From: a bacterium
GTDB lineage: Bacteria > JAUVQV01 > DATDCY01
Assembly (NCBI GenBank): GCA_036524115.1
Contig: DATDCY010000279.1
Coordinates: forward strand, 1 to 58,146
Reading direction: 5' to 3'
Length of the DNA: 58,146 bases
The position numbers and the translations under genes were made by a program. Below are positions 14,244-46,434 of this stretch, one piece after another. Numbering within the stretch: the stretch's first letter is position 1; every line of letters starts with the position of its first letter. The notes beneath the pieces are model-generated. The model worked only from the letters and a program-made list of their open reading frames with translations, was not told where the DNA came from and did no database searches.

Positions 14244-14951
14244 ATGCCGGCACGGTTCGCCGCCATCTTCTTCGTGCTGCTGGCCTTGCCCCTGCCCGCC
14301 GGCGCCGGGACGATCCAGCTTCCGCGGACCGGGCAGAGCACCTGCTACGACGCGACCGGCGTCATCATCGACTGCGCCAACACCGGCCAGGACGGCGACA
14401 CGCAGACCGGGGTGCCCTGGCCTTCCCCCCGCTTCACGGACAACGGGGACGGCACCGTCACCGACAACCTGACCGGGCTGATCTGGCTCAGGGACGCCAA
14501 CTGCACCGACACCGTCGGGGGGATTCCGCGGGCCGGCGGGCTGCTGAACTGGCCCTCGGCGCTCACGTGGTGCAACAGCCTGGCGCACGGCAGATGCGGC
14601 CTCGCCGACAACTCCGTGGCCGGCGACTGGCGCCTCCCCAACATCAACGAGCTGAAGAGCCTCGTCGACCACTCGCGACACGACCCGGACCTGCCCGGCG
14701 GTCATCCGTTCCGCAATGTTCAACCCCTGTGGTACTGGTCGTCCACGTCGAACCCGGTCTACACCGCCGGCGCGTTCAACGTCGGGATGAGCCGCGGCAG
14801 CATCCACGTCACCGACAAGCTGCCCAGCCGGTTCGGCTCCAGCAATGTCTCGGACAAGGAGGAAAGCGCCCTCGGGGTCTGGCCGGTCCGCGGCGGGCAG
14901 CCGGCCCGCGAGCGGAGGAATCCCTCCCCTACCGTGCCTCCGGCGCCATGA
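14244..14951 (+). CDS. secreted DUF1566 (Lcl C-terminal domain) protein, single-domain paralog
   Basis: ATG 14244 lies inside ORF 13878..14951. Signal peptide MPARFAAIFFVLLALPLPAGAG, then TGQSTCYD...NTGQDGD...DWRLPNINELKSLV...YWSSTS. Confidence 0.75.
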   Translation: MPARFAAIFFVLLALPLPAGAGTIQLPRTGQSTCYDATGVIIDCANTGQDGDTQTGVPWPSPRFTDNGDGTVTDNLTGLIWLRDANCTDTVGGIPRAGGLLNWPSALTWCNSLAHGRCGLADNSVAGDWRLPNINELKSLVDHSRHDPDLPGGHPFRNVQPLWYWSSTSNPVYTAGAFNVGMSRGSIHVTDKLPSRFGSSNVSDKEESALGVWPVRGGQPARERRNPSPTVPPAP

Positions 14952-16053: not shown

Positions 16054-16054
16054 G

Positions 16055-19828: not shown

Positions 19829-19832
19829 ATCC

Positions 19833-21038
19833 CTAGGGCGATGTGGTGAACGAGCGGCCCTCGACCCCTTTCCAGTAACGCTCGACCGCGGCCGCCAGGT
19901 CCTCCTCCCGCCCGATCAGACACTCGGGGACCGCCTCGCGCCCGGAGAACCCCCCGGCGCCCCCGGTGAAGAAGGACAGGACCGTTTCCCCTTCCCGGAT
20001 CGTACCCTCGTCGATCGCCTGGAGCGTGCCGGCAAGGGCCATGATCCCCGCCTTCTCCATGATCTCCTCCCGGCCGTTCACCTCCCTCGTCTTCACGGGG
20101 ATGTCGTTGTTCGCGAGCTCTCGCAGCAGCAGCGGCAGGCGCCTTTCGTACTCCTCCCGCCGCAGGGCGCGCAATTCGCCGCCGTAGCGCTCCAGGTGCC
20201 GGCAAAGCAGGGGATAGCTCCCCTCGGGGTTGGTGTTGTACAGCGCCTGATCCAGCAGGTCGTCCGAGACGCACTCGGCGTCCTCGGCCTCGATCCGCCG
20301 GTGCCCCTTCCGCCAGGCCCGCGCCATCGGCGAGCGCGCTTCCTGCTGAATCCCGAGGAACTTCGGCACGCCCTCGACGCCCATGGCGCCTTCGCGCACC
20401 AGCGCTCCGACCCGGTCGTAGAAGCCGATGGGGCCGAACCCCGCGCAGATCGTCTGGCTCACCCAGTCGAAGCGCAGCCGCCGCTCCACCATGGTCTCGA
20501 AGACGAACAGCGCCCGCAGGCCCGTGGCGGCGAAGCGCCACTCCAGCGCCGGAACGTGCGGGATCCCGCTCATCTCCGCGAAGAGCAGGGCGGCCCTCTT
20601 GACGTCCCTCTCCGGCCTGTCGACCGAGATGACGTGCGCGCCGGGGAACGCGAAGGAGGCGTCGTCGAGCTTCCAGGAAGTGGCGTCCGGGTGGAAGAAG
20701 AAGGTCTCGACGCCCGCGCTGCGGCCGTACAGCGAAAGGGCCGCGCCGAGATTGGCCCCCGAGGAGAAGGCCGCCGCCCGGTAACCCCTCTTGCGGCACA
20801 GGGCCATGACGAAACAGGCTTCCAGCGACTTGAAGGTGCCGGACGCCATCAGCGTCGATTCGTCGTCGAGATAGACCCGGACGCCCTTGTATTCGAGGAA
20901 CTCCAGGATCCGGGCCCCTTCCCGGAGGCTGACCCGACGATAATCGTCCTCGCTCAATTCATCGAACCCGATTGCCCGATGGTAGCGAAGGATCAGGCTC
21001 TCTCCCGGGGCGAACGCCGGGTCGACGTGCCTATCCAC
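19833..21038 (-). CDS. PLP-dependent enzyme of the tryptophan-synthase-beta/threonine-synthase-like fold (start uncertain)
   Basis: ASGTFKSLEA is a candidate PLP-lysine motif, with SSGANLGAALS and a Gly-rich FFTGGAGG near the C-terminus. GTG 21038 overlaps the upstream stop by 8 nt. The track's start at 21128 would overlap by 98 nt. Confidence 0.6.
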   Translation of the reverse strand: MDRHVDPAFAPGESLILRYHRAIGFDELSEDDYRRVSLREGARILEFLEYKGVRVYLDDESTLMASGTFKSLEACFVMALCRKRGYRAAAFSSGANLGAALSLYGRSAGVETFFFHPDATSWKLDDASFAFPGAHVISVDRPERDVKRAALLFAEMSGIPHVPALEWRFAATGLRALFVFETMVERRLRFDWVSQTICAGFGPIGFYDRVGALVREGAMGVEGVPKFLGIQQEARSPMARAWRKGHRRIEAEDAECVSDDLLDQALYNTNPEGSYPLLCRHLERYGGELRALRREEYERRLPLLLRELANNDIPVKTREVNGREEIMEKAGIMALAGTLQAIDEGTIREGETVLSFFTGGAGGFSGREAVPECLIGREEDLAAAVERYWKGVEGRSFTTSP

Positions 21039-22200
21039 GGCTCGGACTCTTCGGCCGGGAGCGCACGGTCTTCCGAATGAGCGCGAGGATCTCGGCTTCG
21101 GAGACGCCGCGCTCCCGGCTTGCGGCACGCAGGGCGCGGAGGATCGCGGCGCTCTCGCGCCTCCCCGGGGCGAGCCCGAGCTTCCGGCAGAACGGCTCGA
21201 GCGCGTCGGTGTAATCCACCGGGAGCGTGAAGGCGAACTTCCTGGCCGCGCCGATCGCCTCCGGCTCGAAGGGCTCGAAACCGCGGCGGTTGCCGGACGC
21301 CGCGTTGCGGATGTGCTGGACCGGCGAGTGGAGAAACGTGAATTCCCCGACGACGGCCTTCACGCGGCACTTGTCGATCCCGGAGAGTTTCTCGACGAGC
21401 CCCGAGAGGGCGCTCACCTTCTCCAGCCGGAGCCCGGTCCGCACGCCGTGGAGCACCTCCAGCGCGAGCACCACCTCTTCCAGAGCGGCGTTGCCCCCGC
21501 GGTCCCCCAGGCCGTTCGTCACGACGTCCGCGCCGGCGGCGCCGGCGGCGAGGCCGGCGAGCGTGTTCGCCGTCGCGAGGCCGAAATCGTTGTGACAATG
21601 CACGACGATCGGCAGGGAGCATTTCTTCTTCGCGCCGGAGACCATGGCCGTCATCAGCTCCGGTGTGGCGACGCCGGTCGTGTCGTAGAGGATGACCCGA
21701 TCCGCGCCGGCTCCCTGGCCCTCGCGCATCAGCCGGACGAGAAATGCGAGATCCGTCCTCGTGGCGTCGACAAAGCCCAGCCCCACCCGCACCCGGCGTC
21801 TCTTCGCGTGGGCCAATCCGTCCCGGAGCAGCCCGGGCAGGCCGCCCTTGCTGATCTTGTAGTAGTCCTTGAGATTCAGGAGGGTGTCGGACGTGGGAAC
21901 CAGCAGCTCGACCCGATCGAGGCTCGATGCCGCGGCGACGTCGATATCCTCCCTGCACCTCGCGCGGTGGGCGAGGACGAGCGCCGATGTCCGGATTCGC
22001 AGGCCGCGGGACTTGATCGCCGCCGCCAGGGGCAGGCAGCCCCGGATGCCGTAGGGCATGCCGATCTCGATCTCCGGGACCCGCATCTCCTCGAGCATCA
22101 GAACGATCTTCAGCTTCTGCGCGAGGGACAGCTCGACGCCGGGCAGCTCCAGCCCCTCGCGCAGGGTGGAATCTCTGATGAGCACGGGCTTCACGATCAC
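21031..22200 (-). CDS. HMGL-like DRE-TIM metallolyase (homocitrate/isopropylmalate/citramalate synthase family)
   Basis: IRDSTLREG, HCHNDFGLATANTLAGLAAGA and LGDRGGNAALEEV. GTG 22200 follows AGGAGA. Confidence 0.85.
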   Translation of the reverse strand: MIVKPVLIRDSTLREGLELPGVELSLAQKLKIVLMLEEMRVPEIEIGMPYGIRGCLPLAAAIKSRGLRIRTSALVLAHRARCREDIDVAAASSLDRVELLVPTSDTLLNLKDYYKISKGGLPGLLRDGLAHAKRRRVRVGLGFVDATRTDLAFLVRLMREGQGAGADRVILYDTTGVATPELMTAMVSGAKKKCSLPIVVHCHNDFGLATANTLAGLAAGAAGADVVTNGLGDRGGNAALEEVVLALEVLHGVRTGLRLEKVSALSGLVEKLSGIDKCRVKAVVGEFTFLHSPVQHIRNAASGNRRGFEPFEPEAIGAARKFAFTLPVDYTDALEPFCRKLGLAPGRRESAAILRALRAASRERGVSEAEILALIRKTVRSRPKSPSRG

Positions 22201-22216
22201 TCGGTCTCCTGTTGAC

Positions 22217-23101
22217 TTACCTGCTGACGAGCAGGAGGGCGACGCCGCCGACCGCCACGGCCGTCGCCAGGCCGGCCTTCAGGGAAATTCGTTCCCCGAG
22301 CAGGATAGCTGCGATGGGCAGGATGAACAAGGGCGCCGTGGAGCCGAGCGCGCCGGCGAGAGAAGCGTCGAGATGCTTCAGCGACAGCAGGGAGAGCCAG
22401 AAGCCGCCAAAGACCACGATGAAGACGATGAGGGAGACCTTTCGCAGGAGCCTCGGGTCTCCGAAGGGAGCCACCCAGCCCCGCAGCTGGCGACTGAGGA
22501 ATCCCCAGCAGAGCAGTCCGCCGACGCCCCAGAGCATCCGGATCAGGGTGGCCTGCACCGAGGGGACGGCGCGGACGCCGATCTTGGCGCAGATGATCCC
22601 GGCGGTCATGAAGAGGACGGAGAGGAGCCGGAGCACGACCCCCCGCGACGTGCCGCCTGCCAGCCCCACGCGCGCCTGGCGCGCCTGCACGACCCAGGCG
22701 ACGCCGCCCACGGTGAGGCAGATGCCGGCCCACGCGGCGATGGATGGTCGCTCGCCCAGGAAGATGACGGCGGAAGCGGCCACGCAGACAGGGACGAGGG
22801 TTCCCATGAGCGAGGAGAGACTCGGGCCCAGGTGCATCAGGGAGAGGAAGAAAAACGTATCCCCGAGGGTGATCCCGAGCAGACCGCTGATCCCGAGGTA
22901 GAGAAAGTCGTGCAGGCTCATCGGCTCCAGGCGGATCACGAGAAAGGCCGCGGCGAGAAAGAGGCTGCCGATGACGCCCTTGCCCAGGTTCATGCTGAAC
23001 GGGGAGATCTCCTCCCCGATCTTGCGCCACAACACGGTGCCGAGGGCCCAGGAGGCGGAGGATGCCAACGCCACGAGACCGAAGAAGAGCTGGCTGTCCA
23101 C
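22217..23101 (-). CDS. EamA/DMT-family transporter
   Basis: About ten hydrophobic segments in two EamA-like halves. N-terminus ...LASSASWALGTVLWRKIG. GTG start. Confidence 0.85.
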   Translation of the reverse strand: MDSQLFFGLVALASSASWALGTVLWRKIGEEISPFSMNLGKGVIGSLFLAAAFLVIRLEPMSLHDFLYLGISGLLGITLGDTFFFLSLMHLGPSLSSLMGTLVPVCVAASAVIFLGERPSIAAWAGICLTVGGVAWVVQARQARVGLAGGTSRGVVLRLLSVLFMTAGIICAKIGVRAVPSVQATLIRMLWGVGGLLCWGFLSRQLRGWVAPFGDPRLLRKVSLIVFIVVFGGFWLSLLSLKHLDASLAGALGSTAPLFILPIAAILLGERISLKAGLATAVAVGGVALLLVSR

Positions 23102-23128: not shown

Positions 23129-25519
23129 CTAAAAGAAGTTGTAGTCGGTGACGGCCACGGCCAGGTTCCGGGCCTTTGCCAGCTCGGCTTCGGTCGGGAC
23201 AGTCGACCGCACCGTGATCTCGAACGTGACCGTCCCGGCGGTGCGCCCCGCCGTGTAGTGCGTCGCGCTCTCGCCGTTCTTGCCGGTCAACCCCTTGTCG
23301 TCCCGCAACTCTCCGCCGCCGCTGGCGATCGCGTACTCGACCTCGGTGTTGTCGTTCGGGTTGTCGTTGATGTCGGTCACCAGCACCGACAGCTCGGCGC
23401 GGCTCCGGCCATCGGCCGGCAGCTTTTCCGGATTGAGCGTGATGGCGATCTTCGCCGGGGCATCGCTGCGCAGCTCGATCGACACCGTGCCGCTGATCTC
23501 CGCGGTCCTGTCGGTCGCCGTGATCAGCACGATGCCGATCTTCTTCCCGGCGGTGTAGACCGCGCGCGCCTCGCCTTTCCTGTCGGTGATGTCCTTCACC
23601 GTCCGGATCGAGCCGGCTCCGGAGGCAACGCCGAAGTCGACCGTGTGGCCCTCTACCGGCGCGCCGCCGAGGGTCACCCGCGCCGTGATCCGCGCCTGGC
23701 TCCTGCCATCCGCCGTCAGCCATTCGTCGCTGGAGGTCACCGCGATCTCGTACCCCGCCGCCATCGCAGCGGTTTCCTGCGCCGGCTCGAGCTCGAGCTG
23801 GGCGGCCGCCGTGATGTAGGTCTTCACCCAGGCCGAGCCGGTGCTGTTGCTCACCATGTCGCGCGCCACGATGATCGCCGTCTTCGCAGCGAAGCCGGCG
23901 ACATAGGTCAGTTCCACCCGGCCGAACAGGTCGGTCTCGAGCCAGCGGTCCTGCGTGATCCTGCCGCCGACCTGGTCGGCGAAGTCCCCGCCGCCGACCA
24001 CGCCGGTGTACGTCGAGGTCGTGGCCAGCAGGAATTTCACCTTGTGGCCGGGAACGGCCTTGCCATTGGCATCCGTCACCGTCACGGCAACCTTGGACCT
24101 GGAGACCTCATCCGCCTTCAGCTCGTTCGGCTCGGCGGCCACCGCGACGGTGAGGCCAGGGTCGATCGCGAGCACCGTCGTGTCGGTGAGCGTGGTTTCG
24201 GCGCCCAGACGCTCGAGACGGCCGACGACCACGGCCCGGGGGTAGCGGTCCTGCCACCCGGCTCGATAGGAGCCGCCATAGACCCCGGGCTCCGTCTCCG
24301 TCAGCGGCTGCCGTGTGATCGGCGCGAGAACCGTCCGGGTCGTCCCGTCGCGCATGAGCGCCACCGCAGCCAGGTAGTAGGGCGTGTCGACCTGCAAATA
24401 CTCGAAGGTGTAGGACTGCACGCCGGCTTCCAGCTGCTCGACGGGCTCCACCCCCGGGGCGGCCGGGTCGAAGGGCACCGTGCTCGCGTAGACGCGGTAG
24501 CTCTCGACGTCGCGCAGATTGACCTCGCCCGGCTCGTAGAAGGCCTTTTCCTCGAGATAGACCCCCCAGCCGCGCCAGTCGAGGGTGATCCTGCCGCCGA
24601 GGTCGGGGTAGTGCACGAGGTCGAAGGTTGCCGTCGCGCCGGGGTTCCCTTCCAGGGTCACGTGAAGCGTGTCGCCGGCCACGAGCTTGCCGGAGAAGCC
24701 GGAGACCTTGGCCGCGTCGTGGCCCACCGACGAGATGGCGGGGGGCTGGGACGCCGGGACGTCGTCCACGGAGGCGGTGAAGCTCTCGACGAGGGCGCTG
24801 CGGAGATAGGGACGCCTCTTCCCTGGGGGGAGAGCGCGGGCGCCGTCGGGGTCGGGGACCGGGGGGCCGTAGCTCCCGAGCTGGACCGAGACCACGCCGG
24901 AGAGGAAGGCGCCGAGGGGCCTGGAATCGAAGGCCTTGGGCTGGCCCAGCCGCTCGCGGTCGCTGTTGACCCGCTCTCGCTCCGCCGGGCTCAGGGACCT
25001 CCCGGGCTCGTCGTCCCCGGCCTTCCTGGTCTGCTCCTTGCCGTCGACCGAGACGGCGTACTTCCTGGCCCCATCGTCCCAGGTCAGGTCCACGTGGATC
25101 GATTCGCCGCGGGCCACCGGCCGGTCCAGCTCGACGACCGGTCCCCAGAGGCCGATCCCGTGATGTCGATACTCATCGCCTTTTCCCGGGCCGCGAAACG
25201 TGAGCGTGGGGTTGCGGCCCGCAGCCGGCGCCCAGCTCACCTGCAGGCGCAGCACCTGGACGCCGGAACGGTCCAGCAGGGAGAAGACGGTCTCCCCCGC
25301 CGCCGCCGGGGTGTCGCCCGTGCGCTGCAGGTCGAAGGAGATGGCTCCCCGGCTCGCCCCCGCGAAGGAGACGGGCAGCGCGAGGGAGTCCGCGACCTCC
25401 GACTGGTTCCAGCCCTTCCCCCCGAACGTCCGCCCCGCGACCTCACGGGCCGGGACGGCGCTCGCGCCCGCGAGCAGCCAGATGCCGAGGACCCCGAGAG
25501 AACACCATTTCTTTCCCAT
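23129..25519 (-). CDS. secreted protein with three C-terminal Big_1 (invasin/intimin-type Ig-like) domains
   Basis: ATG 25519 lies inside ORF 23129..26656. Signal peptide MGKKWCSLGVLGIWLLAGASAVPA. Repeats of the form L.ADG.S.a.vtv.VtD.nG.pv.g..V.F (LKADEVSRSKVAVTVTDANGKAVPGHKVKF, LTADGRSQARITARVTLGGAPVEGHTVDF, LPADGRSRAELSVLVTDINDNPNDNTEVEY). Confidence 0.75.
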   Translation of the reverse strand: MGKKWCSLGVLGIWLLAGASAVPAREVAGRTFGGKGWNQSEVADSLALPVSFAGASRGAISFDLQRTGDTPAAAGETVFSLLDRSGVQVLRLQVSWAPAAGRNPTLTFRGPGKGDEYRHHGIGLWGPVVELDRPVARGESIHVDLTWDDGARKYAVSVDGKEQTRKAGDDEPGRSLSPAERERVNSDRERLGQPKAFDSRPLGAFLSGVVSVQLGSYGPPVPDPDGARALPPGKRRPYLRSALVESFTASVDDVPASQPPAISSVGHDAAKVSGFSGKLVAGDTLHVTLEGNPGATATFDLVHYPDLGGRITLDWRGWGVYLEEKAFYEPGEVNLRDVESYRVYASTVPFDPAAPGVEPVEQLEAGVQSYTFEYLQVDTPYYLAAVALMRDGTTRTVLAPITRQPLTETEPGVYGGSYRAGWQDRYPRAVVVGRLERLGAETTLTDTTVLAIDPGLTVAVAAEPNELKADEVSRSKVAVTVTDANGKAVPGHKVKFLLATTSTYTGVVGGGDFADQVGGRITQDRWLETDLFGRVELTYVAGFAAKTAIIVARDMVSNSTGSAWVKTYITAAAQLELEPAQETAAMAAGYEIAVTSSDEWLTADGRSQARITARVTLGGAPVEGHTVDFGVASGAGSIRTVKDITDRKGEARAVYTAGKKIGIVLITATDRTAEISGTVSIELRSDAPAKIAITLNPEKLPADGRSRAELSVLVTDINDNPNDNTEVEYAIASGGGELRDDKGLTGKNGESATHYTAGRTAGTVTFEITVRSTVPTEAELAKARNLAVAVTDYNFF

Positions 25520-25533
25520 GGCTGATGCTCCCC

Positions 25534-28500
25534 TCACTGCCCGGGGGCCAGGATATGCCAGCCGTCCGTCGTCGAGGTCTTGCGGTGGCAGTTGTTGGCC
25601 GCGAGGTTGGCGCCGCTGACCCCCCAGGTGCTGAGGCCCGTGTCGATGCAGCTCTGGATGAGCAGCGCCGGCAGCCCGCTGGCGTGCGGGCTGTGGCACT
25701 TGGAGCAGGTGAACGCGTGGGCCTTGCTGCCCGGCCCGTCGGCGCCGCCGACGGTGCCGCTGCCGTACCAGTTGGCGTAGTCCGCGCCGTACCACCCGCT
25801 GTTCGCGACGACCCAGCCGCAGCCCGAGGGCGGGCACTGCTTGGAGGTGCACGACTGGGAGAAGGGATAATTCCCGTTGTCGCAGCCGCTCGAGCAGCCC
25901 ATCTGCAGGCCCATCCCGCAAACGGCATTGACCGGGTCGCGGTTGCCGGAGAAGAGGTCCACCTTGGACGCACCCGTCCCCCCCAGGCAGGAGTTGCTGT
26001 GGCCGTTGGTCATCCCGGGAAGCCAGAGCTTGGAGCTGCCGTAGTAGTCCATCGTGTCCACATTCGCGCCGTGGCACAGGGCGCAGAGCCCCGCCGTCTC
26101 GTCCACGGTGTCCATCGCCGCGTTCTTCGTCGGCCAGTTGCTGTTCTGGTCGATGAAGTACCCGCCCTTGTCCCGCGACGTGCTCAGGCCCCGGGGCGTC
26201 GTGCTGTATCTGCCGACCTGGGTCGTGTACGTGTACGTGCTGCGGGGCGGAAGCTCGGGTGGATAGGGGTTGCCCACCCAGGTGCCCCGGAGGTAGGGCT
26301 TCCCACTGGGGCCGAAGGTGTCGTGGACGTCGTGGCAGTACGAACAGCGGATCGTCCCCTTGGGCTCCAGGGTCGGGGAGGTCCGCTCGACCATCCCGTT
26401 CCCGCGGACGTTGGCGGCCACGCTCGAGGATTGCCCGGCGGCGTCGAAGCTCGCGGTGTGCACCGACGCGACGCGACGCTTCAGGCGCGAGTCGTAGGCG
26501 GACATCCAAAAGCCCTGCGTCCAATCGGAGGCCTTGGTTGCGTAGGACGACGAGGTGTAGAGCCAGCCGTGGTCCTCGGACTCCTGGTTGCCGTCCGATG
26601 TTGGGAAGGTGGCGACCGGAAATCCGACGGGAGTCGTCTTCGTGTTGTAGCCCCACTCACTGACGGGGGTCGCCACGCCCTCGTGACACCCCCAGCAGAT
26701 GTCGGCCTCGTTGGCCCTTCCGTTGATGGAGGCCACCGTGCCCGGGCCGCCGAGGCCGATCCCCCCGGCGTAGGCGATGCCCAGTTGGGTCCGCATGTTC
26801 GTGGAGCCGAGGTTGGGATTGCTCCAGCTGGTGGGCGGCAGGGGAATCCGCACTCCCTTGTAGTGACCGGCGTGGCAGTCCTTGCAGGTGCCCGACCCCC
26901 CGGGTGCCGTGATGTGCGAGCTGGCCATCGTGACGACCGGGGCGAGGGTCCCGCCGCCGCCATTGTGGCAGGAGGAGCAGGCCACCGTCGTGCTTCCCCA
27001 GGCCGGCGTCGCCGCGCCATGACAGGTGCTGGCCGGCGTGCCGGCGCAGGTCCCGTCGTCGATCCCGTCGCCGGCGCTGCCGGTGAGGATGCCGAAGCCG
27101 TCGGGGTCGTTGTAGATCACCACTGCGTTGTCGGTGTAGGAAAGCTGGCTGCCGTTGTATGCGGCCGTGGCGGCCGTGCCGTCGAAGGCCAGCTGCCCGG
27201 CGCCATCCTGGTGGCTGTTCGTGTAGGAGGTCGTCCCGGGGTGGCACGAGTTGCACTCCGTGTAGTCCGTGTCGCTGTTCGCGTGCGCGGCGTGGCTGCC
27301 TGCGCTGGGCCCCGATGTCGGCGGGGAGGCGTGGCAGCTCTCGCAGCCGAAGGCGGGGCCCCGGGAGGGGGTCGCCGTCGCCGACTGGGCGTCGTTGCTG
27401 GTGGCGTTCAACGGGTCTGCGCTGTCCCTGGCGCGCACGCCGTAGCAGTAGGTGAGGCCGTTCGCGAGCCCCGTGTCCTGGAAGGAGGTCGAGCCCAGGC
27501 CGGGCCGATACAGGTTGATGCCGTCCCAGAGCCCGGCGCAGGAGGCGTTCTGGACGCGGTAGAGATCATAGAAGACCGGGGGGGTGGTTGCCAGCCCGGG
27601 GTCGGTGGCGCTGTTCCAGGAGACCTGGACCACGCCGTCCGTGCTGGCGTCCTGCGCCGCGATCCCGGAGACGCCTCCGTTCCACGTCGGCGGAAAGGTG
27701 TCCAGGATTGTCTCGTTGAGGGTGACCTGGTTCGCGATTCCCGGGTAGCTGTCGTAGGCGATCCGGTGGTTCACGGAACCGTAGAAGTAGTTGTAGTAGT
27801 AGAAGAGGATCGCCAGACGGCTGCCCGCCGGCACCGTCACCGCGAGGGGACTCAGATTGAGCGAGTAGGCGGCCATCGCGGTGGTGAGCCCCCCCGTCTG
27901 CACGTACCGCGTCATGTCCGCCGTGTGGTTTCCGCTGGCGTCCACCGCGGCAAAGACCACAAGCACCTGTTCGAGGTAGGAGAGGTTGAGCTCACCCTGG
28001 AAGCCGAAAGTGTTCCCGGTGGCCGATCCGGTGACCCGGGTCTTGTTCGCGTACGGCGCGCTGTAGAACCCGGCGAAGTTGCGCCACTGATAGCTCCACG
28101 GCGTGGCGTCCGATGCCATGTAGTTCTCGGTGCTTTCCGTTCCGCAGTTCTTCGCCGTGGTCAGGAGCCCCAGGCCCGCCGGCGGTGCCGCGGGCGTCGG
28201 CACCGCGTTCCACAGGGGTGCGCCACTGACCGCGAGGTTGGCGGTGGCAGTCCCGCAGGTCAGGCTCAGGTTCGTGTTGACCGAGCCCCAGAGGTTGGTG
28301 GCGCCGGCGGGCTTGGTGAGGTAGTAGACCGTCTGTGAGCTCGTCGGAGGGGTTGCCGCCCCCGGCGCCACGCCGGCGGAGATGTCGGTGTTGGTGGTCT
28401 CGTTCCTGGTGACCCAGTTGTCCTTGGCGCGGACGCCGAAGTAGTAGGTCGTGCCGACCGTGAGTCCCGTCACCGTGGTGCTCGTCCCCGTCAAGTCCGT

Positions 28501-31500
28501 GGCGATGGGCGGCCCGACGAAGACCGCGGCCGCGGAGTTCGTCGTTGAGGCATAGAGATCGTAGCTGACCGGGTTCGAGGGGTAGGCGTCGGTGGCCGCG
28601 TTCCAGGTCACGTTCAAGACCCCGCCCAGGTTGGGGTTCGTGGCGGCGATGCCGGAGTTCGGGGACCAGGCCGGAGGCGCCGTGTCCGGCGTGTAGTACC
28701 AGCCCGGCGTCGTCGAGCCGGCGTGGCAGTCGACGTTCGTGCAGGTGCTCGAGGCCGCGACGAAGGCGCCGTCGGCGTCGGTGCCGCCCGTGATCGTCTT
28801 GAACCTGCTGCTCACGCCGTCCATGACGTCGGCGGGCGGGGCGGACTGGTCGCCCGAGTGAGCGCCGCCGGGGTGGCACCAGTTGCACGTGCTGGCGTTG
28901 TCCGCGCTCGTCCCCGGGTTGCCGGCCACGATCGCCGCGACGTGCTTCTGGTGCGCGCCGGGGCGGTTCTCGTAACCCGAACCGTTCTGCACGCCGCCGT
29001 CCGGGTAGACGTTCGCGCCGCTTGTGCCGTGGCAGGCGCTGCAGCTGCCCGGACCGATGTCGCGGGCGCGCAGCGGGCTGACGGTCGGCATGGTCCCGGC
29101 CGCCGGGCCGATCCGGTGGCTGGCGTCGTCCAGGTGACAGGCGGCGTTGGCGCAGCCGCCACTGGACGGGTTGTAGTTCGCGTCGTCGGTCGAGGCGGCG
29201 TTGCCGTCGTCGTTCATCGTCACGCTGCCGTCCCGGTGGTCCGTGGCCGGCACGTAGGTGTAGCTGCCGTTGAGCACGGCCGGGTCCTGCACGACGAAGC
29301 CGTCCAGGGTGCCGTTGGCCTTCACGCCGTGGCAGATCCCACACTCGTTGTGGTTGCCCTTGAGCGCGGCGGTGTTCCCGGGCGTGATCGAGTCGTGATA
29401 GACCGCCTCGGCGCCGGCAGCGTGCAGGTTGTAGTTCGCGCCCCCGTCGGCGGCACCCGTCGGCGGGTAGCCGTGGCAACTCGTGCACGAGGCCCCGCCG
29501 AAATTGACCGCGGACACGCTCCAGTTCGAGTTCTCGAGCCGGTGCCCGGCGTCGTTCCCGTGGCAGACCGCGGCGTTGCTGCAGCCGAAGTTCGCCTCGT
29601 CGTACCCGGTGCCGGTCGAGGGTTGCGGGCCGTTCATCTGGATGGCGCCATCTCCGTGCATGCCCGAGCCATCCCGCGGGTTCCAGAAGTTCGCCCCCGC
29701 CGTGTAACCGGCGTGCCTGTCGCTGCGGGAGTTCGCCCCGTGGCAGGTTCTGCAGGTCTGGTGCGTCCCGGCCGCCAGGAGCTCGGACGAGGCGTCGCCG
29801 TCCCAGTTGTACCCGTGCTCGACGGAGTTGTCCGCGCCGTTGTGCGCGCCGCCGCCGAAGGTCCAGTCATTTGCGAACCCGCCATGGCAATTGGCGCACT
29901 CCGTCCCGTCGGTGTTGGCCGCGCTCGTGTCCCAGCGACGTCTCCAACTCCCGGCGTCGCCGTTGTTCACCGTCGGGCCGTGGCACGTCGCGAAGGCGCC
30001 GCCGTTCGGGCCGCAGGTGGGCGTAGCGGCGTCGACGAAGCCGACGCTCGAGTCGAGATGGACTCTCGGGAGGCTGCCGTCGAGGGACCCGACGCTGGCG
30101 TCGAACACGCCGTCGATGTGGTTGGCCGCCGGCTCCGTCGGCGTTGTCGTGTGGCACGTGGCGCAGTCGCCCACGACCGGGCCGTCCGCGCCGTCGGCGT
30201 CCCAGGAGCCGTCGTGGCTGTTGCCCGTGACGCTGGGTGTCACGGCGTGCAGCCCGCTCACCGGGGCGTTCGCGCCGCCGCCGATGTAACTGCCGTCATG
30301 GCAGTCCAGGCAGGCCAGCGTCGTCGCGCTCGTCCAGTCGCGCCCGTCCGTCACCGCGTGGCAGGTATTCGCGCACACGCCCGTCGCCGGCGTGTACGGG
30401 AACGCAACGTCGTGGCTGCCGTTGAAGTGCGCTGCGTGCCGTCCCGCCGCCGCCCCCGCGCCGTGGCAATCGCTGCAGCCCCCGGACACGTACGCGCTGT
30501 TGTTCAGGTGCGGCGTGTGCTCGCCCGACGTCAGCGGCCAGCCGCTGAGGATCCCGCTGGCGTACAGCATCTTGCCGCTCGCGGCGTGGCAGTCGGCGCA
30601 GGAGGCCAGCGTCGTCGCGCTCCACGCGCCCGCGCCGCCCGAGCTGTTGTGACAGCCGTTGGCCGCGCCGTCGCAGTTCGCCTCCGTGTCGAAGGCGCTC
30701 GTGTAGTCGAACGCCGCCGTCATGTACGAACCGCCGAAGTTCACCGTCCCGCCCGTCCCGTGGATGCCCGTCCCCGGCGGCTGCGACCGGCCGTCGTGCG
30801 GGTGGCACACCTGGCAGCCTGCGACGTAGCCCGAGGCGACGTGCGCGTCGTGCGTCGCCTGGCTCTTGGTCGTCCCGAGGTGGCTGCGGCCGTTGGCCGC
30901 GTGGCAGTCGTTGCAGGAGGACTGCGCCCGCCAGCCCCCCAGCGCATCCTTGTTGTGGCTGTGGCACGTGTTGCAGTCGGTCCCCGGAGCCTGCTGCCCG
31001 CCCTTGTGCGTGGTGCTCGGCGAGTTGATCCACGCCGACAGCGGCGAGTACCCGCTCCCATGGCAATCGGCGACGTCGCAGACGCCGTTCGCGTCGCCGG
31101 TGCGGAAGAAGTCGAGGATGGTCGTGGAGTTGGCGTGGTAGTCCCCCGTCGAGGCAAGGTCCCACTTGGGCGTGTCGTAGACGACCGTCTCCGTGCCGGC
31201 CCTGTTCGCGAACTGGGACAGCGGCGCCTTGTAGTACCCGGCCCTCTTGGCCTTCTCCGGGATCATCATCACGTTCGAGGTGGTTCCCACCCCCTCGGCG
31301 TGCTCGTCGTGACAGTCCTGGCAGCCCACCCCGCCGGCGCTCGCCGTCTGGTGCGCCTGGTAGCTCTGGTGACAGGAGATGCAGATGCCCACCAGCGGGT
31401 TGCCCATCGCCGAGCCCGTGTCCCACGCCTGCAGCGTGCCGCTGAGGTTGAACTTCCGGAGGTACCGGTCCTGGTCCGTCGACCCCGACGTGTCGTTCGC

Positions 31501-32652
31501 GTGCGGCTTCTGCGCCGGGTCCAGCCCCACGTGGCACGCGGTGCAGGTGTAGCCCATCGTGACCTCGGTGCCGCTCGCGTCAGGCGCTGCGTTCTTGTAC
31601 CGGTAGGTGCTCTGCGCCATGCCGTGGCCGTGCTTGTAGTAGTTCCCCCCGTCGGCCAGGTTGTTCCAGTCGCCCGCGTAGTGGCACACGCTCGTGCAGT
31701 CCCCGCTGACCACCGGCGTGTCCGCCGTCATCCCGGTCCCGGTCTTGTGCTGCTCGTGCCCGTCGTTGAACAGCCGCCGGTTCGAGGAGTAGTGCGTATC
31801 GTGGCAGACCGTGCACTGCGCCGTCATCGCCAGGCCGGTGACGTCCGCCGCGCCGTTCGCGTCCAGGTCGGCGGTGCGCAGCACCGTGCTGTCGTTCTCG
31901 CGGAGCGGACGCCCCGCGCGCCCGTCCGCGTGCGCCAGCAGCCGCATGCTCACGCCCTTGATCGTCTGCGCAGCGTCGCTGCTGTGGCACGTCCGGCACA
32001 GCGTGTCGTACTCGCCGGCCGCCGTGACGCTCTTGAGCATGAACGGGTTGCCCACCGGGTCCGCCGGAGGTCCGTGTTCGGGGTACTTGTCCGCCGGCCC
32101 GCCACGCGAGGTCGCGGCGTTGCCATCGCTGCCCTCGTCGACGGTCGTGGTCGCCGGGTCGTCGCGGCCATCCGCGCAGCTGACGAGATCGTGGCAATCG
32201 ACGCAATCGAGCTCGTAGCTCGTCGCGGAATCGAGGGTGCTGAGGAACTCGTTGCGCGTATCGCTGCCCGCGCCCCGGAAGTCGTACCCCACGGGGTGGA
32301 AGGACGTCCGGCTCCGAAAGTCGCTGAGCGCCGGCTTCATCGTCCCCGTCCGGCCGCTGTCGTTGTGGCAGAAGGTGCAGCCGAGTCTCGGGGGGCTCTG
32401 GCCGGCCGGCAGCCCGGCGTACTGCGCGATCAGCGGGAAGGTGCGGACCAGCCTGTTGATGAAGCTGGTGCCCGCAGCGCCCTCGGTCTCATCCAGGGTG
32501 TGGCAGGCGTAGCAAGCCTCGCCGGCGTCGTGCGCGGCCTGTGCGGCGGGGGGGCGCGCCGCGGCGAGGGCGACGAGCGTCACCAAGCACCCCGCGAGGA
32601 GCAGGAGGCTTCGCGGCGGCGGTCCTTGTTGCACCGTATCCGCCATAGTCAT
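25534..32652 (-). CDS. giant (2372 aa) exported multihaem c-type cytochrome with Geobacter-type CxxxxCH...CxxCH repeats and two FN3-like domains
   Basis: Signal or anchor sequence ...PRSLLLLAGCLVTLVALAAARPPAAQA. Hand count from the translation gives 29 CxxCH and about 10 CxnCH variants (for example CDVADCH, CANAACH, CTNVDCH). FN3-like modules VLNVTWNAATD...YYFGVRAKD and VVQVSWNSATD...YCYGVRARD. Confidence 0.9.
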   Translation of the reverse strand: MTMADTVQQGPPPRSLLLLAGCLVTLVALAAARPPAAQAAHDAGEACYACHTLDETEGAAGTSFINRLVRTFPLIAQYAGLPAGQSPPRLGCTFCHNDSGRTGTMKPALSDFRSRTSFHPVGYDFRGAGSDTRNEFLSTLDSATSYELDCVDCHDLVSCADGRDDPATTTVDEGSDGNAATSRGGPADKYPEHGPPADPVGNPFMLKSVTAAGEYDTLCRTCHSSDAAQTIKGVSMRLLAHADGRAGRPLRENDSTVLRTADLDANGAADVTGLAMTAQCTVCHDTHYSSNRRLFNDGHEQHKTGTGMTADTPVVSGDCTSVCHYAGDWNNLADGGNYYKHGHGMAQSTYRYKNAAPDASGTEVTMGYTCTACHVGLDPAQKPHANDTSGSTDQDRYLRKFNLSGTLQAWDTGSAMGNPLVGICISCHQSYQAHQTASAGGVGCQDCHDEHAEGVGTTSNVMMIPEKAKRAGYYKAPLSQFANRAGTETVVYDTPKWDLASTGDYHANSTTILDFFRTGDANGVCDVADCHGSGYSPLSAWINSPSTTHKGGQQAPGTDCNTCHSHNKDALGGWRAQSSCNDCHAANGRSHLGTTKSQATHDAHVASGYVAGCQVCHPHDGRSQPPGTGIHGTGGTVNFGGSYMTAAFDYTSAFDTEANCDGAANGCHNSSGGAGAWSATTLASCADCHAASGKMLYASGILSGWPLTSGEHTPHLNNSAYVSGGCSDCHGAGAAAGRHAAHFNGSHDVAFPYTPATGVCANTCHAVTDGRDWTSATTLACLDCHDGSYIGGGANAPVSGLHAVTPSVTGNSHDGSWDADGADGPVVGDCATCHTTTPTEPAANHIDGVFDASVGSLDGSLPRVHLDSSVGFVDAATPTCGPNGGAFATCHGPTVNNGDAGSWRRRWDTSAANTDGTECANCHGGFANDWTFGGGAHNGADNSVEHGYNWDGDASSELLAAGTHQTCRTCHGANSRSDRHAGYTAGANFWNPRDGSGMHGDGAIQMNGPQPSTGTGYDEANFGCSNAAVCHGNDAGHRLENSNWSVSAVNFGGASCTSCHGYPPTGAADGGANYNLHAAGAEAVYHDSITPGNTAALKGNHNECGICHGVKANGTLDGFVVQDPAVLNGSYTYVPATDHRDGSVTMNDDGNAASTDDANYNPSSGGCANAACHLDDASHRIGPAAGTMPTVSPLRARDIGPGSCSACHGTSGANVYPDGGVQNGSGYENRPGAHQKHVAAIVAGNPGTSADNASTCNWCHPGGAHSGDQSAPPADVMDGVSSRFKTITGGTDADGAFVAASSTCTNVDCHAGSTTPGWYYTPDTAPPAWSPNSGIAATNPNLGGVLNVTWNAATDAYPSNPVSYDLYASTTNSAAAVFVGPPIATDLTGTSTTVTGLTVGTTYYFGVRAKDNWVTRNETTNTDISAGVAPGAATPPTSSQTVYYLTKPAGATNLWGSVNTNLSLTCGTATANLAVSGAPLWNAVPTPAAPPAGLGLLTTAKNCGTESTENYMASDATPWSYQWRNFAGFYSAPYANKTRVTGSATGNTFGFQGELNLSYLEQVLVVFAAVDASGNHTADMTRYVQTGGLTTAMAAYSLNLSPLAVTVPAGSRLAILFYYYNYFYGSVNHRIAYDSYPGIANQVTLNETILDTFPPTWNGGVSGIAAQDASTDGVVQVSWNSATDPGLATTPPVFYDLYRVQNASCAGLWDGINLYRPGLGSTSFQDTGLANGLTYCYGVRARDSADPLNATSNDAQSATATPSRGPAFGCESCHASPPTSGPSAGSHAAHANSDTDYTECNSCHPGTTSYTNSHQDGAGQLAFDGTAATAAYNGSQLSYTDNAVVIYNDPDGFGILTGSAGDGIDDGTCAGTPASTCHGAATPAWGSTTVACSSCHNGGGGTLAPVVTMASSHITAPGGSGTCKDCHAGHYKGVRIPLPPTSWSNPNLGSTNMRTQLGIAYAGGIGLGGPGTVASINGRANEADICWGCHEGVATPVSEWGYNTKTTPVGFPVATFPTSDGNQESEDHGWLYTSSSYATKASDWTQGFWMSAYDSRLKRRVASVHTASFDAAGQSSSVAANVRGNGMVERTSPTLEPKGTIRCSYCHDVHDTFGPSGKPYLRGTWVGNPYPPELPPRSTYTYTTQVGRYSTTPRGLSTSRDKGGYFIDQNSNWPTKNAAMDTVDETAGLCALCHGANVDTMDYYGSSKLWLPGMTNGHSNSCLGGTGASKVDLFSGNRDPVNAVCGMGLQMGCSSGCDNGNYPFSQSCTSKQCPPSGCGWVVANSGWYGADYANWYGSGTVGGADGPGSKAHAFTCSKCHSPHASGLPALLIQSCIDTGLSTWGVSGANLAANNCHRKTSTTDGWHILAPGQ

Positions 32653-32671
32653 ACTCGCCTAATCCTGACTG

Positions 32672-32680
32672 ATATTACCA
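32672..32680 (-). promoter_or_regulatory. possible extended -10 promoter (TGGTAATAT) of the giant cytochrome gene
   Basis: The reverse complement of 32672-32680 reads TGGTAATAT. It lies in an AT-rich patch about 20 nt upstream of ATG 32652 (AGGA RBS in between) and downstream of a terminator-like hairpin. Confidence 0.35.
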
Positions 32681-32739
32681 GAAATTGACGGAAAGGTTAC
32701 ACGAGAGTTACGGACTTCGCGGCAACGGACAAACGGATA

Positions 32740-32770
32740 GAGGGCGGGTCCCTTGCCGGGGCCCGCCCTC
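32740..32770 (-). terminator. terminator-like hairpin after the octahaem cytochrome gene
   Basis: GAGGGCGGG (32740-32748) pairs with CCCGCCCTC (32762-32770), and flanking ACGGAT/ATCCGT can extend the stem. On the minus strand it is followed by TATCCGTTT. Confidence 0.6.
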
Positions 32771-32820
32771 TGGATCCGTCCTGTGCCTTCCTGCCCGCGC
32801 CGGTGCGAGCGGGGACGGCG

Positions 32821-34032
32821 CTACTTCTTCGCTTCCGCCCGCATGGAGGCGGCGTCGGCCTTGATCTCGACGAGGTCCTTCTTCAGCTCCGCGTAGCCGT
32901 ACCAGGTCACGTAGTCGGGGTTCATGTGGAACGCGCCCTGGAACGCCCGCATGCGGTGCTCGAGGAACATCACGTAGAGCGTCTGCTCCACGGGCGTCGT
33001 CGCGTCGTAGAAGGTCAGGAGGTCCGGGTAGGCTGGCTGGCCCTCGGCCGGCTTGATGATGCCGTCCCTGTAGAGCCCGGCGACGATCTCGATCGCCTCG
33101 GCCATGATCTTGTCGGCCTCCTTGACCATCGCATCGGCTTCCTTGAGGTTCTGCTTGTAGAACGAGGCGCTGTGGCACTGCGAGCAGACCTTCTCCATCT
33201 TCCCGCGCTCGGCGTCGAACGCCTCCTTGGTCAGCCGGGCGACGTCCCCGGCCTTCACGACGTCGAGCCGCGCGGTCGGCTTGCCGTCGACGTCGAGCAC
33301 CCGCAGCGCCTTGAGGATCGTCGCGCGGTAGCCCATCCACTCGGCGTCGTCCTCCGGCAGCCGCAGCGCGAGGAAGCCCCAGGCGGTCTTCACGCCGTGG
33401 TCGCCGCCGGGCATGTGGCAGGTCTGGCAGACGGGGGCGCGGCCGGTATCGTTGGTCGAGAGCGCGATCGAGCCATGCTTGGAGGTCGACCACATCTCCC
33501 ACTGCGGGTGGTCGAAGCCCATGTGGCAGGTCTGGCAGGCCTGCGGCTTGCTCGCCTCGGCCTTCGAGAAGACGTGGCGGGTGTGGCAGGAGTTGCAGCC
33601 CATCCCGTAGCGGTTGTACTGCTTCTCCGCCTCCGGCTTGACCCCGACGCGGTGGCAGCCCCCGCAGCCCTTGAGGCCCGAGATGTACGGGTGCGGCTGG
33701 AGGCTGTTGGTCGGCATCGCGGCCATCGCGACCCAGCCCTTGGAGTGCTTGCCGGCCATGTAGCCGTCGTACTGCTTGGCGTGGCACTTCTTGCAGGTCT
33801 CCGGGGTCGGGAGCGCCGCCTTGGTGGCGTCCTTCTCGCTGGTGTGCGCGGTGCCGTGGCACTCCTCGCAACCCATCGCGTCGTTCATCGCGCTCTTCTT
33901 CCAGTCCGCGACGATGCCCGGGCTGACCTTCTCGTGGCAGGTGATGCACGCGCTGTCGGCGGCCGCCGCCGGTCCCGCCGCGAGCGCGAGCAGGCCGATC
34001 GCCGCCATGGTCAATGCCGCTGCCTTCTTCAT
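32821..34032 (-). CDS. octahaem c-type cytochrome, hydroxylamine-oxidoreductase (HAO)-like family
   Basis: ATG 34032 follows GGGAGGGAAGGG. Signal peptide MKKAAALTMAAIGLLALAAGPAAA. Eight CxxCH motifs (CITCH, CEECH, CKKCH, CGGCH, CNSCH, CQTCH, CQTCH, CSQCH) and a helical C-terminal part. Confidence 0.85.
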   Translation of the reverse strand: MKKAAALTMAAIGLLALAAGPAAAADSACITCHEKVSPGIVADWKKSAMNDAMGCEECHGTAHTSEKDATKAALPTPETCKKCHAKQYDGYMAGKHSKGWVAMAAMPTNSLQPHPYISGLKGCGGCHRVGVKPEAEKQYNRYGMGCNSCHTRHVFSKAEASKPQACQTCHMGFDHPQWEMWSTSKHGSIALSTNDTGRAPVCQTCHMPGGDHGVKTAWGFLALRLPEDDAEWMGYRATILKALRVLDVDGKPTARLDVVKAGDVARLTKEAFDAERGKMEKVCSQCHSASFYKQNLKEADAMVKEADKIMAEAIEIVAGLYRDGIIKPAEGQPAYPDLLTFYDATTPVEQTLYVMFLEHRMRAFQGAFHMNPDYVTWYGYAELKKDLVEIKADAASMRAEAKK

Positions 34033-36470: not shown

Positions 36471-37520
36471 ATGACGCACGACTTCAATTTCCTGGCCACG
36501 GGGATCGGCAGCCTGCCCCTGACGGACCCGGCTGCGGCCGTGGCGCTCGCACTGCGCTACCTCCCCGAAGCGCCGATCTGGCCGCAGCTGCCGAAGCGCG
36601 GATATCGCGAGCACATGGGCGGCCAGTACGCCGAGGGCCTCCCCGGCCTCGTCGAGGACCCCGCGCGGGAGAGCTTCTCGATCGATTCCTCCCGCGATCT
36701 CACCGGCGAGCTCGAGCGTTTCTTCGAGCGCTACCTCGCGCGGGACCTCGGGCACTTCGCGATCTCGGAGGCACACGCCGCCGGGCTGCACGCGCTGCTG
36801 CGCGCGCTCGAGACGGGCGGGCCGCCGCCGGGCGCCCGCTTTCTCAAGGGCCACGTCACCGGACCGCTGACCGCGGGGCTCTCGCTCAAGGATGAACAGG
36901 GCCGCGACATCATCCACAACGAGCTGCTCTTCGACGTCGTCGTCAAGAACCTGGCGCTGAAGGCGGCCTGGCAGGTCGAGGTCCTCGGCCGCTTCGGCCG
37001 GCCGGTGATCGTCTTCATCGACGAGCCGGCGATGGAGACCCTCGGCTCGGCGTTCTCCGCGGCCGCGCCCGAGCTCGTCGCGGAGAAGCTCGAGGAGGTC
37101 ATCGCGGCGATCCACGAGGGCGGCGGCATCGCCGGCATCCACTGCTGCGGCAACGCGGACTGGCCCCTGCTCTTCGGGACGCAGGTGGACATCGTGAACT
37201 TCGACGCCTTCGACTACCTCGAGCGGGTGCTGCTGTTCCCCGCGGAGGTCGCCGCGTTCCTCGCGCGCGGCGGCGCGCTGGCGTGGGGGATCGTGCCGAC
37301 CAGCGGCTCCACGGGAACCGAGACCGCCGCGGGGCTCATCGAGCGGCTCGAGGGCGGTTTCGCCCGGCTCGGGGCGGCCGGGATCGCCCGGGAGACCCTT
37401 GTCCGGCAGGGGATCGTGACGCCCTCCTGCGGCCTGGGGAGCCTCTCGCCCGCGCAGGCCGAGGCGGCGCTGCGACTGACGCTCGAGATCTCGGCGCGTC
37501 TGCGGCGGCAACCCGCGTGA
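36471..37520 (+). CDS. cobalamin-independent methionine synthase (MetE C-terminal)/URO-D-like Zn-dependent alkyltransferase family protein
   Basis: IFIDEPAM, GIHCCGNADW and VTPSCGLG resemble the His-x-Cys...Cys zinc site of the MetE catalytic domain. 349 aa. Confidence 0.65.
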   Translation: MTHDFNFLATGIGSLPLTDPAAAVALALRYLPEAPIWPQLPKRGYREHMGGQYAEGLPGLVEDPARESFSIDSSRDLTGELERFFERYLARDLGHFAISEAHAAGLHALLRALETGGPPPGARFLKGHVTGPLTAGLSLKDEQGRDIIHNELLFDVVVKNLALKAAWQVEVLGRFGRPVIVFIDEPAMETLGSAFSAAAPELVAEKLEEVIAAIHEGGGIAGIHCCGNADWPLLFGTQVDIVNFDAFDYLERVLLFPAEVAAFLARGGALAWGIVPTSGSTGTETAAGLIERLEGGFARLGAAGIARETLVRQGIVTPSCGLGSLSPAQAEAALRLTLEISARLRRQPA

Positions 37521-39247: not shown

Positions 39248-39309
39248 CCGCCTTCGGCCCCGGTGACCGGCGAGGGCGCGACCCCGCGGGCGAGGGCCTC
39301 GGGCAGACC

Positions 39310-41037: not shown

Positions 41038-41051
41038 GGCGAGGGCTGCCG

Positions 41052-46350: not shown

Positions 46351-46385
46351 GGGCCCGCTTCCGCTTTGTCTTCGCCTGGCGCCTG

Positions 46386-46394: not shown

Positions 46395-46434
46395 ACGGGC
46401 AGTGTCTTTCCGACAACGAAGGAGGCAACCGACC

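Follow-up and report, generated by a model that had tools for sequence, protein, structure and literature searches.

A giant multihaem cytochrome c with a conserved C-terminal tail and an Ig-like partner gene, a candidate single-chain electron conduit

Giant single-chain multihaem cytochromes are common in metagenomes and we know of none that has been studied. One of them is encoded on a 58,146-nucleotide stretch of bacterial DNA (contig DATDCY010000279.1 of assembly GCA_036524115.1; hereafter the window), where a gene at positions 25534..32652 of the minus strand specifies, from an ATG start, a protein of 2372 amino acids (aa). The locus raises the question of whether such a polypeptide is a genuine product of the genome and, if so, what a single chain with this many haem sites might do. 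We propose, with a probability of roughly 0.62, that it is an intact, Sec-exported cytochrome with 38, probably 39, haems, that it acts as a single-chain extracytoplasmic electron conduit, and that it is docked through a conserved C-terminal region (the "tail") to the product of the next gene, a secreted immunoglobulin-like (Ig-like) partner protein.

A preliminary description of the window had recognized a giant multihaem c-type cytochrome with 29 canonical CxxCH motifs and about ten expanded ones, and a count by script bears this out. There are exactly 29 CxxCH motifs and nine CxnCH sites, with n=3 at aa 319 and 760, n=4 at 525, 1167 and 1304, n=5 at 1024, n=6 at 660, n=7 at 1869 and n=9 at 880. 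The protein has 39 CH dipeptides in total, and the 39th, C2355-H2356, pairs with C2335 (n=19) as a candidate tenth expanded site. In 2000 composition-preserving shuffles the means were 0.14 for CxxCH, 0.77 for the expanded form and 3.8 for CH; 29 CxxCH against an expectation of 0.14 is the general mark of a multihaem c-type cytochrome. All 38 sites have a counterpart in the orthologue P0001, a 2320-aa protein with the same motif total (29+9), which comes from a 410-kb contig of a metagenome-assembled genome (MAG) labelled uncultured Candidatus Rokubacteria and aligns at 54% identity over 99% of the query (q14 to q2372). At three expanded sites the loop differs in length while the site is kept (window versus P0001: n=9 versus 3 at 880, 5 versus 3 at 1024 and 7 versus 9 at 1869). 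Since all nine are conserved in position in an orthologue only 54% identical, and those in the N-terminal region are invariant in 18 relatives, these comparisons point to selection on the expanded sites. No residue types are better conserved against P0001 than Cys (89%) and His (85%), compared with 56% overall. Moreover, 43 of the 57 non-motif His are kept, and the 42 of these that lie in haem-bearing regions are enough for mostly bis-His ligation of 38-39 haems. From these patterns we infer covalent haem loading of the 38-39 sites. The end-to-end colinearity with P0001 also argues against a frameshift or chimera, either of which the preliminary description had named as fatal to its interpretation; no sign of one was seen and, judged from the alignment, the gene is real and intact.

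The chain opens with a Sec signal peptide (aa 1-39; 32536..32652, on the minus strand like all parts of the cytochrome and its partner), whose hydrophobic segment (aa 11-37) is the only one in the protein, and which is likely to be cut by signal peptidase I at AQA|AH, between residues 39 and 40. In all relatives a signal peptide is followed by A|(A)H[YF]..EG..C.SCHTLD, and the N-terminal hydrophobic segment together with the conserved AxA|AH context is the export signal expected of a c-type cytochrome. A lipoprotein reading based on the lipobox-like LAGC at C22 was rejected, as this is only 17% conserved and the relatives show a signal peptidase I context. H41 (32530-32532), two residues past the predicted cut, is 100% kept in an 18-sequence alignment and is likely to provide a distal haem ligand from the mature N-terminus. 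The predicted mature protein has a mass of about 240 kDa (about 264 kDa including 38-39 haems) and an isoelectric point of 5.4.

The signal peptide is followed by a conserved "head" (aa 40-785; 30298..32535), shared with 17 relatives at 29-54% identity, which holds 17 haem sites, namely 14 CxxCH and the CxnCH sites at 319, 525 and 660; the CxnCH at 760 and a CxxCH at 781 stand at its end. In an alignment of the N-terminal 800 aa with the 17 relatives the Cys and His of all 17 motifs are invariant or nearly so, as are about 16 non-motif His. The Pfam family Cytochrome_C7 (PF14522) matches the protein in six stretches, the best at aa 364-449, with 76.4 bits against a cut-off of 24.8. The next region (aa 786-1320; 28693..30297) is built of divergent tandem triheme units of the form CxnCH ...W... 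CxxCH ... CxxCH. The units begin at 880, 1024 and 1167, and a final CxnCH stands at 1304. A self-comparison of the whole protein by BLAST returns the self-match only; the repeats become visible when unit is compared with unit (E 1e-3 to 3e-8). Across the protein, a CxxCH lies 20-39 aa past the expanded site in nine of nine cases, usually with a Trp between, and one or two further CxxCH follow; between aa 319 and 1309 the sites run expanded-canonical-canonical(-canonical), with five purely canonical motifs at either end of the protein. Hence the pairing of expanded with canonical sites noted in the preliminary description holds throughout, but the repeat is a unit of three to four haems (CxnCH-CxxCH-CxxCH) and not a strict alternation of pairs. 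The same description had taken the long spacers rich in Gly, Ser, Thr, Asn and Asp to be distinctive. Their length (in the N-terminal part a median of 47.5 aa between motifs, range 20-81) and composition (G 12.5, A 12.4, T 10.0, S 8.9, D 6.6 and N 5.9%) are as it stated, but the ratio of residues to haems, 44 in the N-terminal and 61 in the C-terminal part, is like that of known extracellular cytochromes and not unusual for the class.

The haem-bearing regions are interrupted at aa ~1321-1765 by an FN3/jelly-roll/FN3 insert without a single haem site, which is common to the closest relatives only. Its first FN3-like domain (~aa 1321-1420; 28393..28692) gives a Pfam fn3 match of 4.7e-4, below the cut-off, and a match to the Fn3-like PDB entry 3mpc (E 0.0049); the second (~aa 1656-1765; 27358..27687) corresponds to FN3 matches in relatives, and the two are 42% identical to each other (E 7e-14). 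Between them lies an all-beta domain, here called X (~aa 1421-1655; 27688..28392), with two Cys (1466 and 1503), for which a jelly-roll-type sandwich is predicted: an AlphaFold2 model of aa 1420-2372 from 13 sequences, of which only this domain is usable (mean predicted local distance difference test, pLDDT, 33.4), shows nothing but strands over aa ~1520-1650 at pLDDT 60-84. Pfam has no match for X, and Foldseek finds generic jelly rolls only (cocaine esterase, birnavirus VP2; E ~1e-5), which are uninformative on function. The ends of an FN3 domain sit at opposite poles and the FN3-X-FN3 layout is symmetrical, so that the insert could be an out-and-back arm which returns the chain to the haem core. 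Beyond it, aa 1766-2372 carry eight CxxCH, one CX7CH and the long-loop site; the stretch ahead of the tail (aa 1766-1891; 26980..27357) accounts for the CxxCH at 1770 and 1800 and the CX7CH at 1869. A search of PDB sequences with the whole cytochrome gave nothing below E 0.001, only weak matches to 3mpc, to the chitinase A1 FN3 domain (0.1) and, by chance, to BgaR (0.089).

The tail (aa 1892-2372; 25537..26979) comprises six CxxCH (1892, 1923, 1986, 2103, 2190 and 2316) and the long-loop C...CH, and ends in GWHILAPGQ. By BLAST, many relatives that differ in their middle parts share it as their C-terminus. In a library-wide phmmer search it matched 281 representative clusters (at 50% identity) with E<=1e-3, 206 with E<=1e-10 and 131 with E<=1e-30, and among the 150 matches listed the match stands at or near the C-terminus. 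The family shares the invariant blocks CWxCH, SEWG, RCSxCHDxH, PYLRG, GGYFIDQN, LCxLCHG, NGH and FxCSKCHxPHA..LP.L, after which a loop separates an invariant Cys from a CHR that is likewise invariant. Against P0001 the tail is 71-78% identical, except for a variable last ~170 aa at 47%. No specific Pfam family covers it, the only match being Cytochrom_c3_2 (37.5 bits) at 1874-1932. Its AlphaFold2 model from a 62-sequence alignment has a mean pLDDT of 68.4 and a predicted template modelling score (pTM) of 0.75, and has zero Foldseek matches in the PDB, which is weak evidence of novelty because multihaem folds have little secondary structure.

The candidate 39th haem site, C2335-x19-C2355-H2356 (25585..25650), belongs to this tail. 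C2335, C2355, H2356 and the following R2357 are invariant in the 62-sequence family alignment, and the signature CxKCHxPH..PxL..C-(18 to 66 aa)-CHR recurs in 145 of 160 family members. On this conservation it is a probable haem site with a very long and variable loop; alternatively, these residues may form a disulfide and have a single-thioether or non-haem role. A CX15CH haem site is known from MccA, where it is reported to need a dedicated lyase (PMC6976685). Elsewhere in the tail, aa 2222-2278 (25819-25989) form a Cys-rich stretch with seven Cys, CGMGLQMGCSSGCDNGNYPFSQSCTSKQCPPSGC, which falls in the block that is 47% identical to P0001 and aligns with gaps, is modelled at a pLDDT of ~40 and is possibly a disulfide knot or a metal site.

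The gene downstream of the cytochrome (23129..25519) codes for a secreted protein of 796 aa with a LamG-like N-terminal third, an Ig-like middle and three Big_1/Invasin_D3 domains. The 14 nucleotides (nt) from the TGA stop of the cytochrome to the ATG of the partner (25520..25533) include the Shine-Dalgarno-like GGGGAG. A protein collection lists the partner on a contig of 58146 bases, and the window thus appears to be a whole metagenomic contig; a first protein search did not give the giant cytochrome as an entry encoded there. The partner has a signal peptide, no further hydrophobic segment, one Cys and zero haem motifs. Its 73 homologues are almost all 780-840 aa long, 36-73% identical and unnamed beyond "hypothetical" or "Ig-like domain-containing"; some match Laminin_G_3 (PF13385) in the variable N-terminal third. 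The C-terminus, LAVAVTDYNFF (23129-23161), is kept as LAVAVTDYxFF in nearly all of them. With its alternating hydrophobic strand and terminal aromatics it resembles the beta-signal of outer-membrane proteins, with no barrel evident. Searches of the PDB sequences and NCBIfam gave no match for the partner; its domain matches were to Big_1/Invasin_D3 and, weakly, to Ig-like families, and none was to a barrel. In nine of nine readable contexts (the window, L001, L004, L005, L006, L007, L008, L009/L010 and L012) the partner lies directly downstream of a tail-bearing giant cytochrome, at a distance of -7 to 80 nt; the remaining genes around this two-gene cassette vary. The tail-less giant relative P0011 is followed by a different gene, of 239 aa. 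The constant 780-840 aa of the partner, set against a five-fold range in the cytochrome (800-4148 aa), suggests contact with the fixed-size tail and not along the wire. In several relatives system II cytochrome c biogenesis genes lie directly past the partner: three loci have short ResB-like genes (L008 10347-11252, L009 22984-23997 and L011 2691-3767), and L005 has CcsA (14618-15442) followed by hemA/C/D/B; none is present in the window or in L001. These ResB/CcsA-like genes could supply a dedicated lyase for the expanded or long-loop sites.

How does this protein relate to known cytochromes? Its place is with the CxxxxCH/CxxCH giant cytochromes of the databases, and in its working it is closest to the c7-type triheme polymers. 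Relatives that NCBI and JGI annotate as "CxxxxCH/CxxCH domain c-type cytochrome" are P0007, P0009, P0013, P0017, P0019, P0038, P0039, P0047, P0061, P0082 and P0136. All named tail-family members have this annotation too, and they include WP_221248989.1 of Desulfuromonas versatilis (2823 aa), WP_084319052.1 of Deferrisoma camini (2641 aa) and proteins of Trichloromonadaceae. Both named species are Fe(III) reducers. The connection to the Geobacter CxxxxCH...CxxCH repeat (TIGR01904) drawn in the preliminary description thus stands as far as the names of relatives go, but the model itself scores 24.4 bits over six stretches (best 1139-1215) and narrowly misses its cut-off of 27, and PF09698 has no match at E<=1. 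Paired expanded and canonical motifs, giant size and the same C-terminal tail are held in common with that family; unlike it, the window cytochrome has exactly four spacer residues in only three of nine expanded sites, carries the FN3/jelly-roll/FN3 insert and comes from a Rokubacteria-like lineage and not from Desulfuromonadia. Tail-family members readable at full length range from 804 to 4148 aa with 9-80 motifs (median 18), and P0006 has 91 (63+28). The window cytochrome is therefore large but not extreme, and the earlier suggestion that it is among the largest cytochromes c does not survive. A survey of Desulfuromonadia reported up to 87 motifs (PMC11492766).

The c7 polymers, represented by GSU1996 of Geobacter sulfurreducens (PF14522), likewise consist of tandem three-haem units, and PF14522 is well above its cut-off here. 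The window units differ in being ~100-145 aa long, against ~75 aa, and in opening with an expanded CxnCH; the protein has no PDB cytochrome match by sequence and the model of its haem regions is poor. GSU1996 is an elongated dodecahaem (12-haem) "nanowire" protein, which supports a single-chain wire model. Also comparable are the predicted single-chain "long wires" of Desulfuromonadia (cluster 2), such as the 27-haem, 130.7-kDa protein of Geobacter metallireducens; 27-haem wires of Desulfuromonadia were predicted to be extracellular and ~350 Angstrom long, with genes outside porin-cytochrome operons (PMC11492766). By their description, the cluster-2 wires of Desulfuromonadia resemble the window cytochrome in the many haems per chain, the predicted extracellular location, the missing porin-cytochrome operon and the role in long-distance transfer; that paper mentions neither an Ig-like partner gene nor a conserved tail. 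The filaments of OmcS, OmcE and OmcZ are also extracytoplasmic haem chains for long-range transfer, but are polymers of 4-8-haem subunits, whereas here the length lies within one polypeptide. OmcZ also has one expanded site, CX14CH; no similarity to the three was found with the cytochrome among PDB sequences or with the tail model in Foldseek. Unlike a porin-cytochrome conduit of the MtrCAB or Pcc type, the cassette has no adjacent porin gene, and the HAO-like cytochrome encoded next to it is non-syntenic in relatives. The partner, for its part, shares three C-terminal Big_1/Invasin_D3 domains with the intimin/invasin surface proteins, but has a LamG-like N-terminal third where they have a beta-barrel or LysM, neither of which was detected, and differs in its fixed length of ~800 aa and its conserved C-terminal LAVAVTDYxFF.

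In the mechanism that we favor, the cytochrome would be exported by Sec and then receive 38-39 mostly bis-His haems outside the cytoplasmic membrane, and these haems would form one long intramolecular chain. A single polypeptide, within the envelope or on the cell surface, could then relay electrons between the respiratory chain and an acceptor or donor that is external or distant. Through its tail of fixed size it would dock onto the co-translated ~800-aa Ig-like/LamG-like protein as its anchor or adaptor, and the FN3/jelly-roll/FN3 arm may project sideways as a binding element. At the ~8-10 Angstrom per haem of OmcS and GSU1996, the expected length would be ~23-29 nm for 29 haems and ~7-10 nm for the C-terminal 9-10 haems. 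A wire-like or surface-exposed architecture is plausible on indirect evidence; it fits the adhesin-type domains of the locus, FN3 and jelly-roll in the cytochrome and Big_1 and LamG in the partner. The wire geometry, the location and any direction of electron flow are putative. Several observations weigh on the other side. The ~450-aa haem-free insert could break the haem chain between aa 1309 and 1770, and AlphaFold2 models the haem regions at a pLDDT of only 20-35, from a shallow alignment. No porin, secretion system, sorting signal or membrane anchor was seen in the cassette or the window, and no porin-like gene in any of the nine contexts, where the cassette consists of cytochrome and Ig-like partner only, which leaves passage through an outer membrane unexplained. 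Cytochrome maturation (Ccm/Ccs) genes were not found in the window, contact between tail and partner is backed by co-occurrence only, and we found no family member that has been experimentally characterised.

In a different picture the protein stays in the periplasm as an electron store (a capacitor) or as a conduit that fills this compartment, with the partner as a periplasmic scaffold or chaperone. Both proteins bear a Sec signal only, with no sorting signal, anchor, porin or secretion genes seen nearby, and of the two roles proposed for multihaem cytochromes of very large size, one is to store electrons (PMC11492766). However, domains of the FN3, jelly-roll, Big_1 and LamG type are typical of surface or extracellular proteins, the cytochrome diverges fast relative to its neighbours, and the ~170 Angstrom of the periplasm (PMC11492766) would be far too short for relatives with 80-91 haems. 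We consider such a store unlikely. The alternative that the whole gene is an artefact, namely a spurious long ORF, a pseudogene or a chimera assembled from repeated cytochrome genes, starts from the ~70% GC of the window, where DNA of this kind yields many long spurious open reading frames (ORFs), and from the readiness of repeats to mis-assemble. Three relatives from public assemblies (P0021, P0022 and P0023) do carry garbled Arg/Pro-rich stretches inside otherwise 60-85%-identical sequence, which look like frameshift errors of those assemblies; P0021 and P0022 were excluded from the alignments and P0023 was never a candidate row. In the window, however, the cytochrome gene has a normal codon-position pattern with a GC content at third positions of 0.93, matches an independent 2320-aa orthologue from end to end with the same 29+9 motifs, and retains its operon partner and flanking synteny, so that an artefact is scarcely credible.

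A further alternative turns on the tail, which might be a catalytic or substrate-binding terminal module with one haem in open or unusual coordination, for instance at the long-loop site, and with the haem chain as its feeder; the cytochrome would then be a terminal reductase or oxidase and not only a wire. Outside the head no part is more conserved than the tail, last ~170 aa apart, and blocks such as SEWG, PYLRG, GGYFIDQN and NGH are invariant in it; its predicted fold is compact (pTM 0.75) with no PDB relative, and published work places the atypical CX15CH in the sulfite reductase MccA/SirA family. Nevertheless, the conserved non-motif His of the tail (H1930, H2065, H2110, H2218, H2312 and H2323) about equal its haems in number (6-7 with that of H2356), which leaves little room for an open site. 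Pfam, TIGR, PDB and Foldseek show no similarity to known haem enzymes, and no substrate-related neighbour gene is conserved across the contexts. A catalytic tail is thus quite improbable. To return to the docked conduit, a bolder version of it, possible although doubtful, is that tail and partner together are a dedicated module, so far undescribed, by which cytochrome wires of a single polypeptide are docked or assembled in several bacterial lineages. In that case the tail would be a new multihaem fold with a haem on a C-x(18-66)-CH loop, longer than the CX15CH of MccA and maybe in need of the adjacent ResB/CcsA-like genes of several relatives.

The host of the window is probably a Rokubacteria-like member of Methylomirabilota, given that the four genes past the partner (EamA, HMGL-like, PALP and ThiC-like) are syntenic with, and 77-84% identical to, those of the Rokubacteria MAG. 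Identity to the same MAG is lower for the partner (61%) and for the cytochrome (54%), which indicates that the cytochrome evolves much faster than its neighbours. Fast evolution has been reported for surface-exposed multihaem cytochromes (PMC13013709; PMC11492766). The locus thus places a giant multihaem cytochrome in a Rokubacteria-like genome, of a lineage of soil and groundwater for which we found no description of extracellular electron transfer machinery; if our interpretation is correct, its bacteria may pass electrons to or from minerals, humics or partner cells. Very large multihaem cytochromes and predicted single-chain wires are already in the literature. In the literature searched, we did not find described the obligate Ig-like partner, a tail lacking a fold relative or the invariant long-loop Cys...CysHis. 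The obligate fixed-size partner, the tail without a known fold and the family-invariant, very long-loop Cys...CysHis give the locus testable handles.

Upstream of the cytochrome, at 32821-34032 on the minus strand, lies a gene for an HAO-family octahaem cytochrome of 403 aa with a signal peptide (PDB 6h5l, 1.5e-28; Pfam PF13447), which is about 100 aa shorter than solved HAO-like proteins. The 168-nt intergenic region between the two genes (32653..32820, minus strand), read directly, has a GC-rich hairpin (GAGGGCGGGCCC...GGGACCCGCCCTC) directly past the HAO-like gene and an AT-richer stretch with TAATAT ahead of the cytochrome ATG. The latter would serve as promoter and the hairpin as terminator; consensus promoter and terminator scans around the cassette gave nothing useful, and Rfam and tRNA scans of the whole window gave nothing. 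The HAO-like cytochrome, a Fer4 (4Fe-4S) protein and a Crp/Fnr regulator were considered as parts of the system and rejected. They are non-syntenic in orthologous loci and, as the hairpin also divides the HAO-like gene from the cytochrome, are regarded as neighbours only.

Further out, the plus strand of the window (37283-44203 and 55258-56979) codes for four consecutive paralogous proteins of ~520-650 aa with C-terminal TPR repeats, one of them with a match to PMT_2. TPR or PMT_2-TPR genes also lie near the cassette in four other loci (L007 17329-22692, L008 11249-15703, L011 3846-7693 and L012 10640-17072), and such PMT_2 (protein mannosyltransferase-like)-TPR proteins might glycosylate the Ser/Thr-rich cytochrome (S+T 17-21%). 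A DsbC-like gene at 46351-47256 on the plus strand (DsbC_N and thioredoxin-like) has an in-frame TGA (46852-46854) at the first Cys of its CxxC (...VYFVTDPQ*PYCKRAG...) and is a candidate for a selenocysteine-containing thiol:disulfide isomerase; 14 nt past the TGA starts a GC-rich hairpin, which has a GUG loop and a folding energy no better than that of shuffles (z -1.2). Past the partner, a same-strand run at 14929-23101 on the minus strand codes for an EamA transporter, an HMGL-like enzyme (homocitrate/isopropylmalate synthase-like), a PALP enzyme, a ThiC-like radical SAM protein under both the ThiC and the BzaB cut-offs, a methyltransferase, a HemN-like radical SAM protein and another methyltransferase, and looks like an uncharacterised small-molecule or cofactor pathway.

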